64,000 nt of DNA from Escherichia phage vB_EcoM_NBG2, in sequence record NC_054925.1; one strand, given 5' to 3'. Positions 2,386 to 63,821 of the stretch are shown here, in pieces (position 1 is the stretch's first letter; every line of letters begins with the position of its first letter). Under the pieces are notes generated by a model. It searched no databases, had not been told where the DNA came from, and saw only the letters and a program-made list of their open reading frames with translations. The translations under genes were made by a program, and so were the position numbers.

Positions 2386-2461
2386 TCTGGTCGAGGCAGT
2401 AGGGATCGAACCTACGACCCAGGACTTAGAAGGTCCTTGCTCTTCCTTCTGAGCTATGCCT
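2386..2461 (-). tRNA. tRNA-Arg (anticodon UCU), CCA encoded
   Basis: Manual fold: acceptor CGAGGCA/TGCCTCG, D-stem GCTC/GAGC, anticodon stem AGGAC/GTCCT with loop CTTCTAA, T-arm GTAGG-TTCGATC-CCTAC. Confidence 0.8.
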
Positions 2462-2467
2462 CGTATT

Positions 2468-2542
2468 TGGCGGACGTGATAGGATTCGAACCTATAACCA
2501 ATCGCTTAACAGGCGATCGCTCTGCCATTGAGCTACACATCC
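2468..2542 (-). tRNA. tRNA-Asn (anticodon GUU), CCA encoded
   Basis: Manual fold: acceptor GGATGTG/CACGTCC, D-stem GCTC/GAGC, anticodon stem ATCGC/GCGAT with loop CTGTTAA, T-arm ATAGG-TTCGAAT-CCTAT. Confidence 0.75.
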
Positions 2543-2546
2543 AAAT

Positions 2547-2633
2547 TGGTGGGGAGTGGTGGAGTCGAACCACCCGAGTCGCAATGACAATGAATTTACA
2601 GTCCACACCGCTACCCCTACGGGATAACTCCCC
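2547..2633 (-). tRNA. tRNA-Tyr (anticodon GUA), long variable arm, CCA encoded; D-arm atypical
   Basis: Acceptor GGGGAGT/ACTCCCC, anticodon loop CTGTAAA, variable-arm hairpin GTC-ATTGC-GAC, T-arm GGTGG-TTCGACT-CCACC; D-stem pairing weak. Confidence 0.55.
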
Positions 2634-2642
2634 AAATTAATT

Positions 2643-2717
2643 TGGTGGCCCTGGGTGGAATTGAACCACCATCTGGCGATTATGAGTCGCGTGCTTGAAC
2701 CTTCCAGCTACAGGGCC
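2643..2717 (-). tRNA. tRNA with CAU anticodon (Ile via lysidine, or Met), CCA encoded
   Basis: Acceptor GGCCCTG/CAGGGCC, anticodon loop CTCATAA, T-arm GGTGG-TTCAATT-CCACC. Confidence 0.7.
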
Positions 2718-2719
2718 TT

Positions 2720-2794
2720 GGTGCTGATTGACGGAATCGAACCGCCGACCTTCTCATTACAAGTGAGTTGCTCTACCTACTGAGCTAAATCAGC
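2720..2794 (-). tRNA. tRNA-Thr (anticodon UGU), CCA encoded
   Basis: Acceptor GCTGATT/AATCAGC, D-stem GCTC/GAGC, anticodon loop CTTGTAA, T-arm GGCGG-TTCGATT-CCGTC. Confidence 0.8.
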
Positions 2795-2799
2795 AAAAC

Positions 2800-2889
2800 T
2801 GGCGGAGGCGATAGGATTTGAACCTATGAGTCGCCGGAGCGACTGCCGGTTTTCAAGACCGGTGCATTAAACCACTCTGCCACGCCTCC
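2800..2889 (-). tRNA. tRNA-Ser (anticodon UGA), class II long variable arm, CCA encoded
   Basis: Acceptor GGAGGCG/CGCCTCC, anticodon stem CCGGT/ACCGG with loop CTTGAAA, T-arm ATAGG-TTCAAAT-CCTAT. Confidence 0.85.
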
Positions 2890-2891
2890 AG

Positions 2892-2965
2892 TCTCCATAC
2901 AAGGATTTGAACCTTGGACCTCCTGATCCCAAATCAGGCGCTCTACCAAACTGAGCTACACGGAG
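2892..2965 (-). tRNA. tRNA-Pro (anticodon UGG), no encoded CCA; 2 nt from tRNA-Ser (dimeric precursor arrangement)
   Basis: Acceptor CTCCGTG/TATGGAG with two G-U pairs, D-stem GCTC/GAGC, anticodon stem CCTGA/TCAGG with loop TTTGGGA, T-arm CAAGG-TTCAAAT-CCTTG. Confidence 0.8.
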
Positions 2966-2975
2966 TAAATTAAAT

Positions 2976-3049
<74 letters not shown>

Positions 3050-3054
3050 AAATT

Positions 3055-3141
3055 TGGTGCGAGAAGTGGGACTCGAACCCACAAGGAAATCATTCCGCAG
3101 CATTTTAAGTGCTGTGCCTTTACCAATTTGACCATTCTCGC
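3055..3141 (-). tRNA. tRNA-Leu (anticodon UAA), class II long variable arm, CCA encoded
   Basis: Acceptor GCGAGAA/TTCTCGC, anticodon stem CAGCA/TGCTG with loop CTTAAAA, T-arm GTGGG-TTCGAGT-CCCAC. Confidence 0.85.
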
Positions 3142-3142
3142 G

Positions 3143-3215
3143 CTGGGAATAAAGGACTCGAACCTTTGCATCCTGGAATCAAAATCCAGTGCCTTACCAA
3201 CTTGGCTAATTCCCA
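3143..3215 (-). tRNA. tRNA-Gln (anticodon UUG), no encoded CCA; 1 nt from tRNA-Leu
   Basis: Acceptor TGGGAAT/ATTCCCA, anticodon stem CTGGA/TCCAG with loop TTTTGAT, T-arm AAAGG-TTCGAGT-CCTTT. Confidence 0.8.
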
Positions 3216-62072: not shown

Positions 62073-62405
62073 TTATTTTACTAATTTCCAATGCTTCATG
62101 TCAAGTTTGCCAACTTTTTTCATCTTCTCAATTAAGCGTTCGGCACGCTGGCGAGCTGTAACATAATACCATTCACCCAATTCATTTTGTTCAATTTTTC
62201 CAACGATTACTGTATTCAATTCATAAATCCAACCAGTAAAGAAATTATGAACTTGAATTGTAAAGGTGAAATCTGTTCCCATACCTTCTGTTGTTTCTAC
62301 TTCAACAATATCACCTTCAACTGCCATTAAGAACCACATAGTTTCATCATATTTACCATTGAAGCATTTAGTTTTAACTGCAGCGTTCAGATTAATCGTT
62401 TTCAT
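62073..62405 (-). CDS. hypothetical protein, 110 aa
   Basis: AAGGAG RBS; early-type promoter upstream. Confidence 0.5.
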   Translation of the reverse strand: MKTINLNAAVKTKCFNGKYDETMWFLMAVEGDIVEVETTEGMGTDFTFTIQVHNFFTGWIYELNTVIVGKIEQNELGEWYYVTARQRAERLIEKMKKVGKLDMKHWKLVK

Positions 62406-62432
62406 TTTATTCTCCTTTGTTTGTGTAAGATA

Positions 62433-62462
62433 ATACTATCACAAAGGAACCATACTGTAAAC
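62433..62462 (-). promoter_or_regulatory. T4 early-type promoter (GTTTAC-N18-TAGTAT) on minus strand
   Basis: Plus strand gtaaac 62457-62462 within the recurring tgtaaacaactttgtg cassette. Confidence 0.4.
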
Positions 62463-62483
62463 AACTTTGTGCAATCTTTGGAA

Positions 62484-62510
62484 AATAAAAAAGGACTCCC
62501 GAAGGAGTCC
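62484..62510 (-). terminator. intrinsic terminator (GGACUCC-UUCG-GGAGUCC plus U6) on minus strand
   Basis: 7-bp stem with UUCG loop followed by a run of T on the minus strand. Confidence 0.65.
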
Positions 62511-62515
62511 TCAAC

Positions 62516-62692
62516 TTATGCTTTCTGCTTACCAAAACGAGAAGCATCATCTCGAAGAACCGCACGTGCTCGGCGCATGATCTTCTCAACAGTTTGATTG
62601 ATACGAGAGTTCGACCCACGCTTGTAACCAGCGCGTTTAGAATCACCAACTTTCTTTTCAACTGCTTTCTTTGCTTTAGCTTGTTTTGCCAT
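62516..62692 (-). CDS. small basic protein, 58 aa (start moved to internal Met)
   Basis: Lys/Arg-rich MAKQAKAKKAVEKK...; ATG at 62692. Confidence 0.4.
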   Translation of the reverse strand: MAKQAKAKKAVEKKVGDSKRAGYKRGSNSRINQTVEKIMRRARAVLRDDASRFGKQKA

Positions 62693-63089
62693 TATAAATT
62701 CTCTTTTAAATGAAAATGCAGGACTTATTGGCATTGCCTGCGCAAGCCCTCAAGGGGAACATAGGTTTTGTATATTTACCGACAGGATAACCATAAACCT
62801 CGTCAACATACCTTATAGCTCTTATCTGTTGCACACCGTTAGCTTAAAGGTTCCGGGTTCGATTTCTCGAGGATAAGATATATACTGATGGATATATAGG
62901 CCTTGAGGCGTACTCCCGATTGGCCATCACCTCGGGGTAGCATGCACTTGCCGCTATAAGAATAACATTCAAGAGGTACACCATAAAACTGCCGGGGTCT
63001 TAAAACTATAATGATTCGCAAATCATTAATCAGACAGTTCGATGGCTCCTCGATTTTAGCTCACACTAAGGCAGTGAATCTCCAATAAA

Positions 63090-63338
63090 TTACTTCAGTG
63101 TTACCACAAAGTGACGAACTGCTTTTCGTGCGGCAGAAGCCAGAGGCTTAGCATATTTAAGTTCATCTTTTTCCTGGAGCTCAGCAGCTAATGCAGTTTG
63201 AGCAGGATTCAGATGTTTGAAATAACGCAGGATTTCAAGAGCTTCGGCTTCAACATCAATAGATGCGCCATAGTTTTCGTGACCATTATTCCATGCGTTT
63301 CGTTGCAGTTCAAGAGCGTGTTGTAATTGTTTAATCAT
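63090..63338 (-). CDS. rIII: lysis inhibition accessory protein rIII, 82 aa
   Basis: Size and position beside gene 31 as in T4. Confidence 0.7.
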   Translation of the reverse strand: MIKQLQHALELQRNAWNNGHENYGASIDVEAEALEILRYFKHLNPAQTALAAELQEKDELKYAKPLASAARKAVRHFVVTLK

Positions 63339-63485
63339 TTAAAAATTCTCGTTAGAGATTAAAACTCGGTAGTCACGTTCTTCTGAATTTCATCTTCTTT
63401 CGACAGATCTCTCAGTTGTAGACTACCACGTAGAATTGTTCGGTTAACTTATTATTCCGACACCCAATTCATATTATTATTTATA

Positions 63486-63821
63486 TCACTTATAAAGACA
63501 CGGAATAGCTTTATAATGACATGTTACGAATTTTTGTTTAATTTCTTTTGGCTGCTTAAGACCCAGAGCTACAAAAGGATGCGGAACGTTTCGAATTTGA
63601 CCAACTGGAAGAGAAGTCAAATCACCAACTTCGCAGAAACCTTCAGGAACATCAGGACCAACAGAGTGAACTACACACAGTTCAGGAACTTCACCTTGAA
63701 CACGTTTACCGATAATAAGTCCTGATTCTGTAACTTCTTCATCACCGGCTTGCGCAGGTTCAGAAACTAAAATAACATATTCACCGACAGCACGAATTGG
63801 TAGCTGTTGTACTTCAGACAT
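63486..63821 (-). CDS. 31: GroES-like co-chaperonin for capsid protein folding, 111 aa
   Basis: Recognised by sequence and length. Confidence 0.85.

Follow-up and report, generated by a model that had tools for sequence, protein, structure and literature searches.

A predicted 149-nt structured RNA between rIII and 30.9 in a T4-like phage

What is encoded in the spacer between genes rIII and 30.9 of Escherichia phage vB_EcoM_NBG2? The 64,000-nucleotide (nt) stretch of DNA analyzed here (the window; sequence record NC_054925.1) is from a T4-like (Tequatrovirus) genome, and annotated near-identical relatives and T4 agree on its gene order. From the stop codon of rIII (63090) to the start of 30.9 (62695) there are 394 nt without a credible gene, in keeping with an earlier note on this DNA that had described a gap of about 400 bp lacking a credible open reading frame (ORF). 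The note also considered the gap unusually long. It is long in the window, but T4 itself has 244 nt in the same interval. A structured noncoding RNA, a regulatory leader, and the remnant of a deleted gene were suggested as its possible contents.

Comparative evidence strongly supports the first of these suggestions and shows a predicted self-contained, folded RNA of 149 nt encoded at positions 62812..62960 on the minus strand. This element, called the core RNA here, is carried by about 430 related phages and is unannotated in the records that were read. Compensatory changes in its helices exceed those in controls, and its G-U pairs are specific to one strand, as is generally expected of structured noncoding RNAs. 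No paper that contains its conserved strings or describes an RNA at the rIII/30.9 locus was found in the literature searched; a passage in PMC9409239 cites Driukas and Nivinskas (2003) on the expression of rIII and 30.9 in T4.

Comparative evidence for the fold and strand

The structure of the core RNA, comprising 46 pairs, was taken from RNAalifold and from inspection. It was evaluated on alignment A3, which was made with MAFFT from 24 distinct sequences and was built independently of the covariance model. Standard pairs occupy 94.9% of the 1101 pair cells in A3, compared with 30-43% when partners are slid, and changes on both sides are seen in 27 of the 46 pairs, compared with 5-12 in the slid controls. 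None of 500 shuffles of A3 attains any of five measures. Covariance model R1, built from A3, recovers the divergent versions in phages phi5, phiEap-3, and mtp5 with scores of 92-106 bits, and finds one copy in the window (62808..62963, minus strand; 186.6 bits). Among 32 distinct members, paired cells reach 95.9% and compensatory changes occur in 33 of 46 pairs, a count that leans toward the structure because the alignment was fitted to R1, so that the A3 count is the independent figure. Slid controls overall, in pair counts that include the kissing loop described below, are 27-43% paired. A centroid fold of the single window sequence gives P1, P2, P2b/c, P3, P4, P5, and P6 (z = -1.96).

Helices P1, P2, P3, and P4 join as a perfect four-way junction with no unpaired linkers, and P1 is the closing stem (Table 1). 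All eight P1 pairs have changed on both sides across homologues; for example, the strands are CAAACAGC and GCUGUUUG in phage PKM.Lu.22.1 and CAUAUUAC and GUAGUAUG in EcS1. The P2 arm contains J2, an asymmetric and nearly invariant internal loop (AAGUGCAU opposite CUCAAG), and its P2a/P2b helix has compensatory changes in 8 of 10 pairs. The P3 strand occurs as UAUAUA, UAUACA, UACACA, UAUUCA, UAUGCA, or UAUGUA. P4 is wholly different in the phi5 group (UUCGUG/CACGAA), and its arm encloses the P5 hairpin, P6, and the joiner J6/4. In most members the P5 loop reads GAAA or GUAA; in some it is UAAA, UAAU, or U-rich. Compensatory changes in P6 replace A-U with U-A in phage Cronus and C-G with U-A in the phi5 group, whereas its loop, L6, is largely invariant (CC.GGA.CC and GCUAAC.GUG are invariant in P6/L6). 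About 45 unpaired or junction nucleotides are invariant among the 32 distinct homologues.

Loops L2 and L3 are predicted to form a 6-bp kissing contact (UGAUGG/CCAUCA), which is the top pairing outside the helices in a mutual-information scan. The two loops are complementary in every member read, in at least five sequence versions, including CGAUGG/CCAUCG, CUAUGG/CCAUAG, CAAUGA/UCAUUG, UUGUAUU/AAUACAA in phage JC221, and UGCAUU/AAUGCA in the phi5 group. In pair counts the contact is 96.5% paired with 15 compensatory cells, and the lone unpaired row is that of JC221, which is misaligned there and has its own 7-bp complement. Because the P2 arm is about 15 bp long and P3 only 7 bp, yet their loops must meet, a sharp bend of the P2 arm at J2 is required. 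P2 would stack with P3, and P1 with P4, and J2, L6, and J6/4 would come together. A J2-L6 pseudoknot (AAGG/CCUU) was considered and dropped, with zero covariation by eye; a candidate J2-J6/4 pseudoknot (UGC/GCA), also read by eye, has invariant bases on both sides.

Read as the minus strand, the pair cells contain 62 G-U and 6 A-C combinations, and the P5 loop is a GNRA tetraloop on this strand only. Because of this asymmetry and the tetraloop, the sense of the RNA is taken to be that of rIII and 30.9. A G-C to G-U change in P2c is likewise compatible with the minus strand only.

This evidence is different from the cues on which the earlier note had relied, which are matters of chance. The strings that it cited are present (ccctcaagg at 62747..62755, ccttgagg at 62901..62908, and the T-loop-like GGTTCGATT at 62856..62864). 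However, the long-range complementarity of the first two is unremarkable, with 2 inverted 8-mer pairs compared with 1.1 +/- 1.3 after shuffling and 32% of shuffles equaling the count. Their pairing does not covary; in homologue L029 the core arm reads CCUUAUGG and the other arm is unchanged. The ccctcaagg arm is part of hairpin M3, which is kept in T4 without the core, and the other arm is the 3' side of J2. The T-loop-like string corresponds to parts of the minus-strand RNA, namely the P5 3' strand and P6 5' strand, of which it is the reverse complement, and its counterparts in other members are GGGTCTGATT, GGGTCCGATT, GGGTCCATTT, and AGGTTGAGAA. Of the checks that the note had proposed, an Rfam scan of both strands, structure prediction, and comparison with T4 and relatives were run: the fold is supported, it has zero Rfam matches, and T4 lacks the core.

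Genomic contexts of the core RNA and its neighbors

A blastn search with the whole gap finds about 1000 Tevenvirinae records, only 178 of which cover most of the gap. A search with the core alone locates it between rIII and 30.9 in 409 records from at least 10 genera: Tequatrovirus, Mosigvirus-like phages, Jiaodavirus, Karamvirus, Kanagawavirus, Moonvirus, Roskildevirus, Kagamiyamavirus, Muldoonvirus, and Marfavirus. At this position, the core of Klebsiella Jiaodavirus phages is about 95% identical and that of Erwinia phage Cronus 80%. In the alignment with T4, exactly the core segment is absent, and T2 apparently also lacks it (two matching pieces cover 62% of the gap). Comparison of the window with other genera gives identities of 91-99% for the core, 66-82% for rIII, and 59-90% for 30.9.

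The core is also found in two other contexts. In 21 records, comprising Yersinia phage JC221 and 20 Slopekvirus/Pseudotevenvirus phages (phi5, GAP161, phiEap-3, and mtp5 among them), it lies in the spacer between the convergent genes uvsY.-2 and uvsW.1, where it is followed by other noncoding sequence and a terminator, but by no gene. In PKM.Lu.22.1 (Grimontviridae, 76 kb), a version with 84.5% identity lies 3' of an ssb-like gene (tail DFDDDCPF) and is followed by a hairpin and a canonical terminator, and then by a gene for an unrelated 185-amino-acid (aa) protein. Pattern scans of viral, metagenome, and genome sequences returned only T4-like contigs or chance matches. A host origin was looked for in 5,426 E. 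coli genomes, with zero matches, and in plasmids, where the only two matches, of 30 nt, are attributed to chance.

In Pseudotevenvirus and Slopekvirus, the uvsY.-2/uvsW.1 spacer is itself a noncoding region of 350-750 nt with a strong terminator at its end and zero Rfam matches (locus L024, 1200..1940, from JC221; L088, 1500..1860, from Lw1; L087, 1490..1830, from phi5). It contains counterparts of the modules M1, M2, and M3 described next, and a further conserved block (GGUAGGUAAAAAGUUGCCAUAGGCAAGACAAA...) is common to JC221 and Lw1.

The spacer between rIII and 30.9 (window 62696..63089, compared with loci L003, L011, L014, L017, L021, L025, and others) is a mosaic of short conserved noncoding modules, M1, X, the core, M2, and M3, whose order and presence vary by genus, as if they had been shuffled by recombination. 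In other phages M1 is directly 5' or 3' of the core, and compensatory variants of this hairpin (CGCUAC/GUGCG and UGCUAC/GUGCA) were read by eye. Module X is predicted to consist of an outer stem (63033..63045 with 62981..62993) and a hairpin (63009..63028); besides the window, it is found only in T4 and Mosigvirus-like phages, with too little sequence diversity for covariation. M2 is probably an H-type pseudoknot with moderate covariation support: in alignment A4, 75.8% of its cells are paired, compared with at most 47% for slid partners, and compensatory cells number 30, compared with 4-8. M2 follows the core in the window and precedes it in Jiaodavirus. Some phages have an overlap between the beginning of M2 and the P1 3' strand, and a search for a conserved alternative pairing there found none.

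M2, though not the core, resembles the pseudoknot in the leader of T4 gene 32: both are H-type, structurally conserved, and located in an untranslated leader of T-even phages. M2, however, is upstream of 30.9, shares no sequence similarity with the gene 32 element, and in some genera is separated from the 30.9 start by the core. To our knowledge, no autoregulating protein is associated with M2.

Directly 5' of the 30.9 Shine-Dalgarno sequence, the window (62700..62741, minus strand) has a GCAGG...CCUGC hairpin followed by AUUUUCAUUU. The equivalent in other genera is GGGAGC...GCUCCC followed by UCUCC-AAAAU-GGAAGA, a segment that could sequester the ribosome-binding site. M1, X, M2, M3, and the 30.9-proximal hairpin may well form a regulatory leader for 30.9, into which the core is an optional insert. 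The leader suggested by the earlier note may thus apply to the parts shared with T4 (M2, M3, and the 30.9-proximal hairpin), but it fits the core poorly, because the core occurs without a following gene and because T4, and apparently T2, do without it.

A simple scan of the gap found no promoter-like or terminator-like sites. The late-promoter motif TATAAATA is also absent from the gap, but it is present upstream of rIII, between gene 31 and rIII (63478..63485, minus strand). For these reasons, the 149-nt RNA is most likely produced within an rIII-30.9 transcript. Across the window the motif has 22 copies, compared with 9.6 expected.

Elsewhere in the window, at 62477..62560 on the minus strand, the Rfam families Atu_C8 (31 bits, E = 4e-4, below the gathering score) and Phe_leader are matched weakly. 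Membership in these families was rejected, as the matches correspond to the intrinsic terminator 3' of 30.9 (62491..62512). Ten tRNA genes (Arg-TCT, Asn, Tyr, Met/CAT, Thr, Ser, Pro, Gly, Leu, and Gln) are clustered at 2388..3215 on the minus strand; nine were called by Rfam at the gathering threshold, and tRNA-Tyr was added by ARAGORN. The cluster contains two more genes than the eight of T4.

Table 1. Features of the core RNA, the surrounding spacer, and adjacent genes. Core coordinates follow from window position = 62964 minus position in the 156-nt window row of alignment A3.
Feature	Position	Strand	Sequence or remark
Whole core	62812..62960	minus	P1 5' strand through P1 3' strand, 149 nt; segment exactly missing in T4
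P1 5' strand	62953..62960	minus	CUUAUAGC; partner 62812..62819
P2 5' strand	62950..62952	minus	GGC; invariant
J2 5' side	62942..62949	minus	AAGUGCAU; with P2 5' strand, GGCAAG.GCAUG invariant in 32 distinct members
P2a/P2b/P2c hairpin	62908..62941	minus	GCUAC / CCCGA / GG; AA bulge (P2b) and bulged C
L2 hexaloop	62924..62929	minus	UGAUGG; caps P2c, kisses L3
J2 3' side	62902..62907	minus	CUCAAG; CCU...GGCCUA invariant; with P2 3' strand, region of the ccttgagg of the earlier note
P2 3' strand	62899..62901	minus	GCC; invariant
P3 hairpin	62879..62898	minus	7 bp; 4/7 pairs compensatory
L3 loop	62886..62891	minus	CCAUCA; partner of L2
P4 5' strand	62872..62878	minus	UCUUAUC; partner GAUAAGA, 62820..62826; 6/7 pairs compensatory
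P5 hairpin	62859..62870	minus	UCGA-GAAA-UCGA; 4/4 pairs compensatory
P6	62833..62858	minus	ACCCG / CGG(U)GU; 15-nt loop L6 GAACCUUUAAGCUAA
J6/4	62827..62832	minus	GCAACA; unpaired joiner; GCAAC invariant
P1 3' strand	62812..62819	minus	GCUAUAAG
M1 hairpin	63059..63083	minus	CAC(U)GC-CUUA-GUGUG; directly 3' of rIII stop; also in T4
Module X	62965..63058	minus	predicted Y-shaped fold (minimum-free-energy fold; T4 alignment)
M2	62764..62805	minus	probable H-type pseudoknot, A-rich third loop; also at T4 locus L002 and in 12 other phages (alignment A4)
M3 hairpin	62747..62757	minus	CCCCUUGAGGG; small hairpin; the ccctcaagg of the earlier note; also in T4
30.9-proximal hairpin	62718..62741	minus	GCAGG...CCUGC and U-rich run; adjoins 30.9 Shine-Dalgarno; also in T4
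gene 31	63486..63821	minus	
rIII	63090..63338	minus	PHROG match
30.9	62516..62695	minus	PHROG match
30.8	62073..62405	minus	

Possible roles of the core RNA

The core was compared with Rfam 15, whose 4227 models include tRNA, RNase P, riboswitches, ribozymes, group I and II introns, and msr. The isolated element (62800..62970, both strands) has zero matches at E<=10. A 1.2-kb scan and a scan of the window at gathering thresholds gave none in the gap, and the JC221 version gave none either. The core is therefore considered a member of neither the lysine riboswitch class nor a small ribozyme class. Short strings that it shares with RNase P RNA of E. coli, with helix 27 of 16S rRNA, and with the SAM-I riboswitch were dropped as candidate relationships; the RNase P and SAM models are unmatched, and these RNase P, helix 27, and SAM-I-like strings lie partly in covarying helices. 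A group I intron, considered on account of insertion after U and an end in G, was rejected because of the insufficient size of the element, the pairing between its two ends, its different sites in other phages, and the lack of an Rfam match.

PMC10690425 reports 10,006 candidate structured RNAs in viruses and phages, and its main text is without T4-like phages. Judged against Rfam, the literature searched, and the main text of that catalog, the core is rated a new family among orphan complex-folded phage RNAs. Like the motifs described there, it is a covariation-supported, intergenic phage RNA without an assigned function; it differs in its unusually complex tertiary structure and its three genomic contexts.

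The favored reading, to which we assign a probability of roughly 40%, is that the core is a factor-binding RNA of accessory value, acting as a decoy, a sponge, or a scaffold for a ribonucleoprotein (RNP). It is favored because the distribution of the core is patchy, mobile, and independent of context, and because its conservation is above that of neighboring genes. The core would then be an autonomous, exchangeable RNA module rather than a leader for 30.9. Its kissing loop and junction would align two loop-bearing arms side by side, and the invariant nucleotides of J2, L6, and J6/4 might build one pocket or surface that binds a specific partner, most likely a host or phage protein or RNA. The RNA may act as a stable folded domain within, or excised from, the transcript, with a role in, for example, host takeover or counter-defence.

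Several points weigh against this reading. Accumulation, excision, and binding of the RNA are predictions, and the binding partner is purely conjectural. Patchy distribution and mobility suit selfish or neutral passengers equally well. Part of the high conservation could result from recent horizontal transfer, although covariation argues for selection on the fold. P2 (GGC/GCC), being invariant, is out of reach of covariation because its pairs never vary. Also, a closing stem, a multi-way junction, a bent arm, and kissing loops are no less typical of riboswitch aptamers and small ribozymes than of protein-binding RNAs, and because the architecture resembles those classes, a ribozyme and a ligand-sensing aptamer are serious alternatives. 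A broader proposal is tentative: the core may represent a new class of functional RNA with a complex fold, which Enterobacterales phages carry as an accessory cassette that can be exchanged. It would have either a new ribozyme or aptamer fold or a role as decoy that neutralizes a host factor (such as an immune sensor or nuclease), with a pocket formed by the invariant nucleotides of J2, L6, and J6/4 and positioned by the four-way junction and the kissing loop.

A new class of catalytic RNA, self-cleaving or otherwise, is possible but unlikely. Its junction and kissing loop would dock the arms into an active site, and cleavage would separate the rIII and 30.9 parts of the polycistronic RNA. The compactness of the core, its closing stem, and the many invariant nucleotides of its junction would suit a ribozyme, as would its lack of a fixed gene association across three unrelated contexts. 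Small ribozymes are common in intergenic regions of phages, and the natural form of the hairpin ribozyme has a linker-free four-way junction with two loop-carrying arms. The core likewise has a perfect four-way junction and two arms whose conserved internal loops or junctions might dock. However, it has an additional kissing loop and a three-way subdomain, its cleavage is hypothetical, and the strings that look like those of the hairpin ribozyme (GUAUAUAUC and AACAGAUAAG) are covarying helices in the core. No Rfam ribozyme model matches, a length of 149 nt exceeds that of most small nucleolytic ribozymes, and cleavage has no obvious use in the uvsY/uvsW spacer, immediately before a terminator.

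Somewhat less likely again is a riboswitch-like sensor or cis-acting leader, in which an aptamer binds a metabolite or signal, and P1 together with M2/M3 controls translation of, or read-through into, 30.9. The core is upstream of 30.9 in about 409 records, the overlap of P1 with M2 noted above could be taken as a link between them, and in PKM.Lu.22.1 the core precedes a terminator and then a gene. The lysine riboswitch (L-box) is similar to the core in having a closing P1, a multi-helix junction with conserved nucleotides, a P2 that turns back, and an L2-L3 kissing contact of about 6 bp. Yet the junction of the core is four-way, whereas that of the L-box is five-way, and the two share neither an Rfam match nor sequence similarity, nor is the core associated with lysine genes. 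A leader for 30.9 is improbable because in Slopekvirus and Pseudotevenvirus only a terminator and a convergent gene come after the core, because 30.9 and M2/M3 persist in T4, and apparently in T2, in the absence of the core, and because Jiaodavirus has the core and M2 in the opposite order, so that there is no conserved expression platform. The consistent position upstream of functionally related genes that is expected of a riboswitch is lacking, as what follows is 30.9, no gene (a terminator and the convergent uvsW.1), or the unrelated 185-aa protein, and no Rfam riboswitch model matches.

The remaining explanations are contradicted by the tests made. A DNA-level element, such as a miniature inverted-repeat transposon, a recombination or homing site, or a replication-origin structure, is improbable. 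The precise presence/absence polymorphism, the inverted-repeat ends, and the movement between loci and phage families would agree with it, and one alternative locus adjoins uvsY, where T4 has an origin. However, the terminal repeats covary rather than being conserved, so that ends differing by lineage are nevertheless complementary; no target-site duplication is seen at the T4 empty site, which already contains both flanking GAATG repeats; no transposase or endonuclease gene adjoins; and compensatory changes have preserved six helices inside the element as well as a loop-loop contact, with a strong G-U strand asymmetry.

A degenerate or cryptic protein gene (62839..63021 or 62844..62984, minus strand) or the remnant of a deleted one is very improbable: ORFs of 60 and 46 aa overlap the core and some GenBank records annotate a 'hypothetical protein' at the gap, but all six frames contain stops in nearly all 24 homologues, no reading frame is conserved on either strand, 1-nt insertions or deletions occur inside the core, helix substitutions are compensatory, the start codons of the ORFs are in a flank that is missing from other genera, relatives have no coding gene here, and the annotated ORFs vary in strand and position by record. 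The earlier note had listed the frame at 62839..63021, which has a TTG start, as the only ORF; others, of 46, 42, 26, and 25 aa, are located wholly or partly in the gap, none is conserved, and none has a Pfam or PHROG match.

Equally remote is the plus-strand reading that the T-loop-like string had suggested, an element that resembles or derives from a tRNA: GCACACCGTTAGCTTAAAGGTTCCGGGTTCGATT on that strand resembles an acceptor/D-stem followed by the 5' half of a T-arm, but ARAGORN finds 0 tRNA genes in 62300..63500, the Rfam tRNA model (RF00005) has no match at E<=10, an anticodon arm is lacking, the 3' strand of the T-stem lacks complementarity, and the T-loop-like string is unconserved and on the strand opposite to that indicated by the G-U/A-C counts. 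An antisense-tRNA role was also rejected. Three actinobacterial tRNA-Lys genes (L044, L045, and L055, from Actinomycetaceae) match an 18-nt conserved string in antisense, but this resemblance is attributed to chance because the pattern has 35 genome matches, fewer than the roughly 70 expected (17 specified bases, 596 Gb), the T-arm-like part is unconserved, and there is no E. coli match. The P6/L6 region resembles the antisense of a tRNA D-stem/acceptor and T-arm, which was judged to be chance.

Relation to other phage RNAs and significance

T-even phages encode RNAs C and D (species 1 and 2 in T4), small stable noncoding RNAs of about 120-140 nt. The core is similar to them in size and in being a phage-encoded noncoding RNA without an assigned function. 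However, those RNAs are located in the tRNA cluster (2388..3215 in the window), R1 finds no second copy in the window, and T4 has C and D but lacks the core.

The genomes of T-even phages are among the best studied, yet the core is unannotated in the records read; it may have been overlooked because the reference phage T4 lacks it. This absence also offers natural isogenic contrasts, as T4, and apparently T2, are without the core, whereas close relatives have it. It is rare for complex RNAs to combine tertiary contacts with dozens of invariant nucleotides, and the ones that have been solved are usually ribozymes, riboswitches, or RNP cores. Some lineages dispense with the core, which also moves from one locus or phage family to another and is conserved above neighboring genes; these traits are like those of accessory or counter-defence genes of phages. 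If it does bind a host factor or act as a catalyst, the core would represent a new RNA-based tool in the conflict between phage and host, as well as a new RNA fold.

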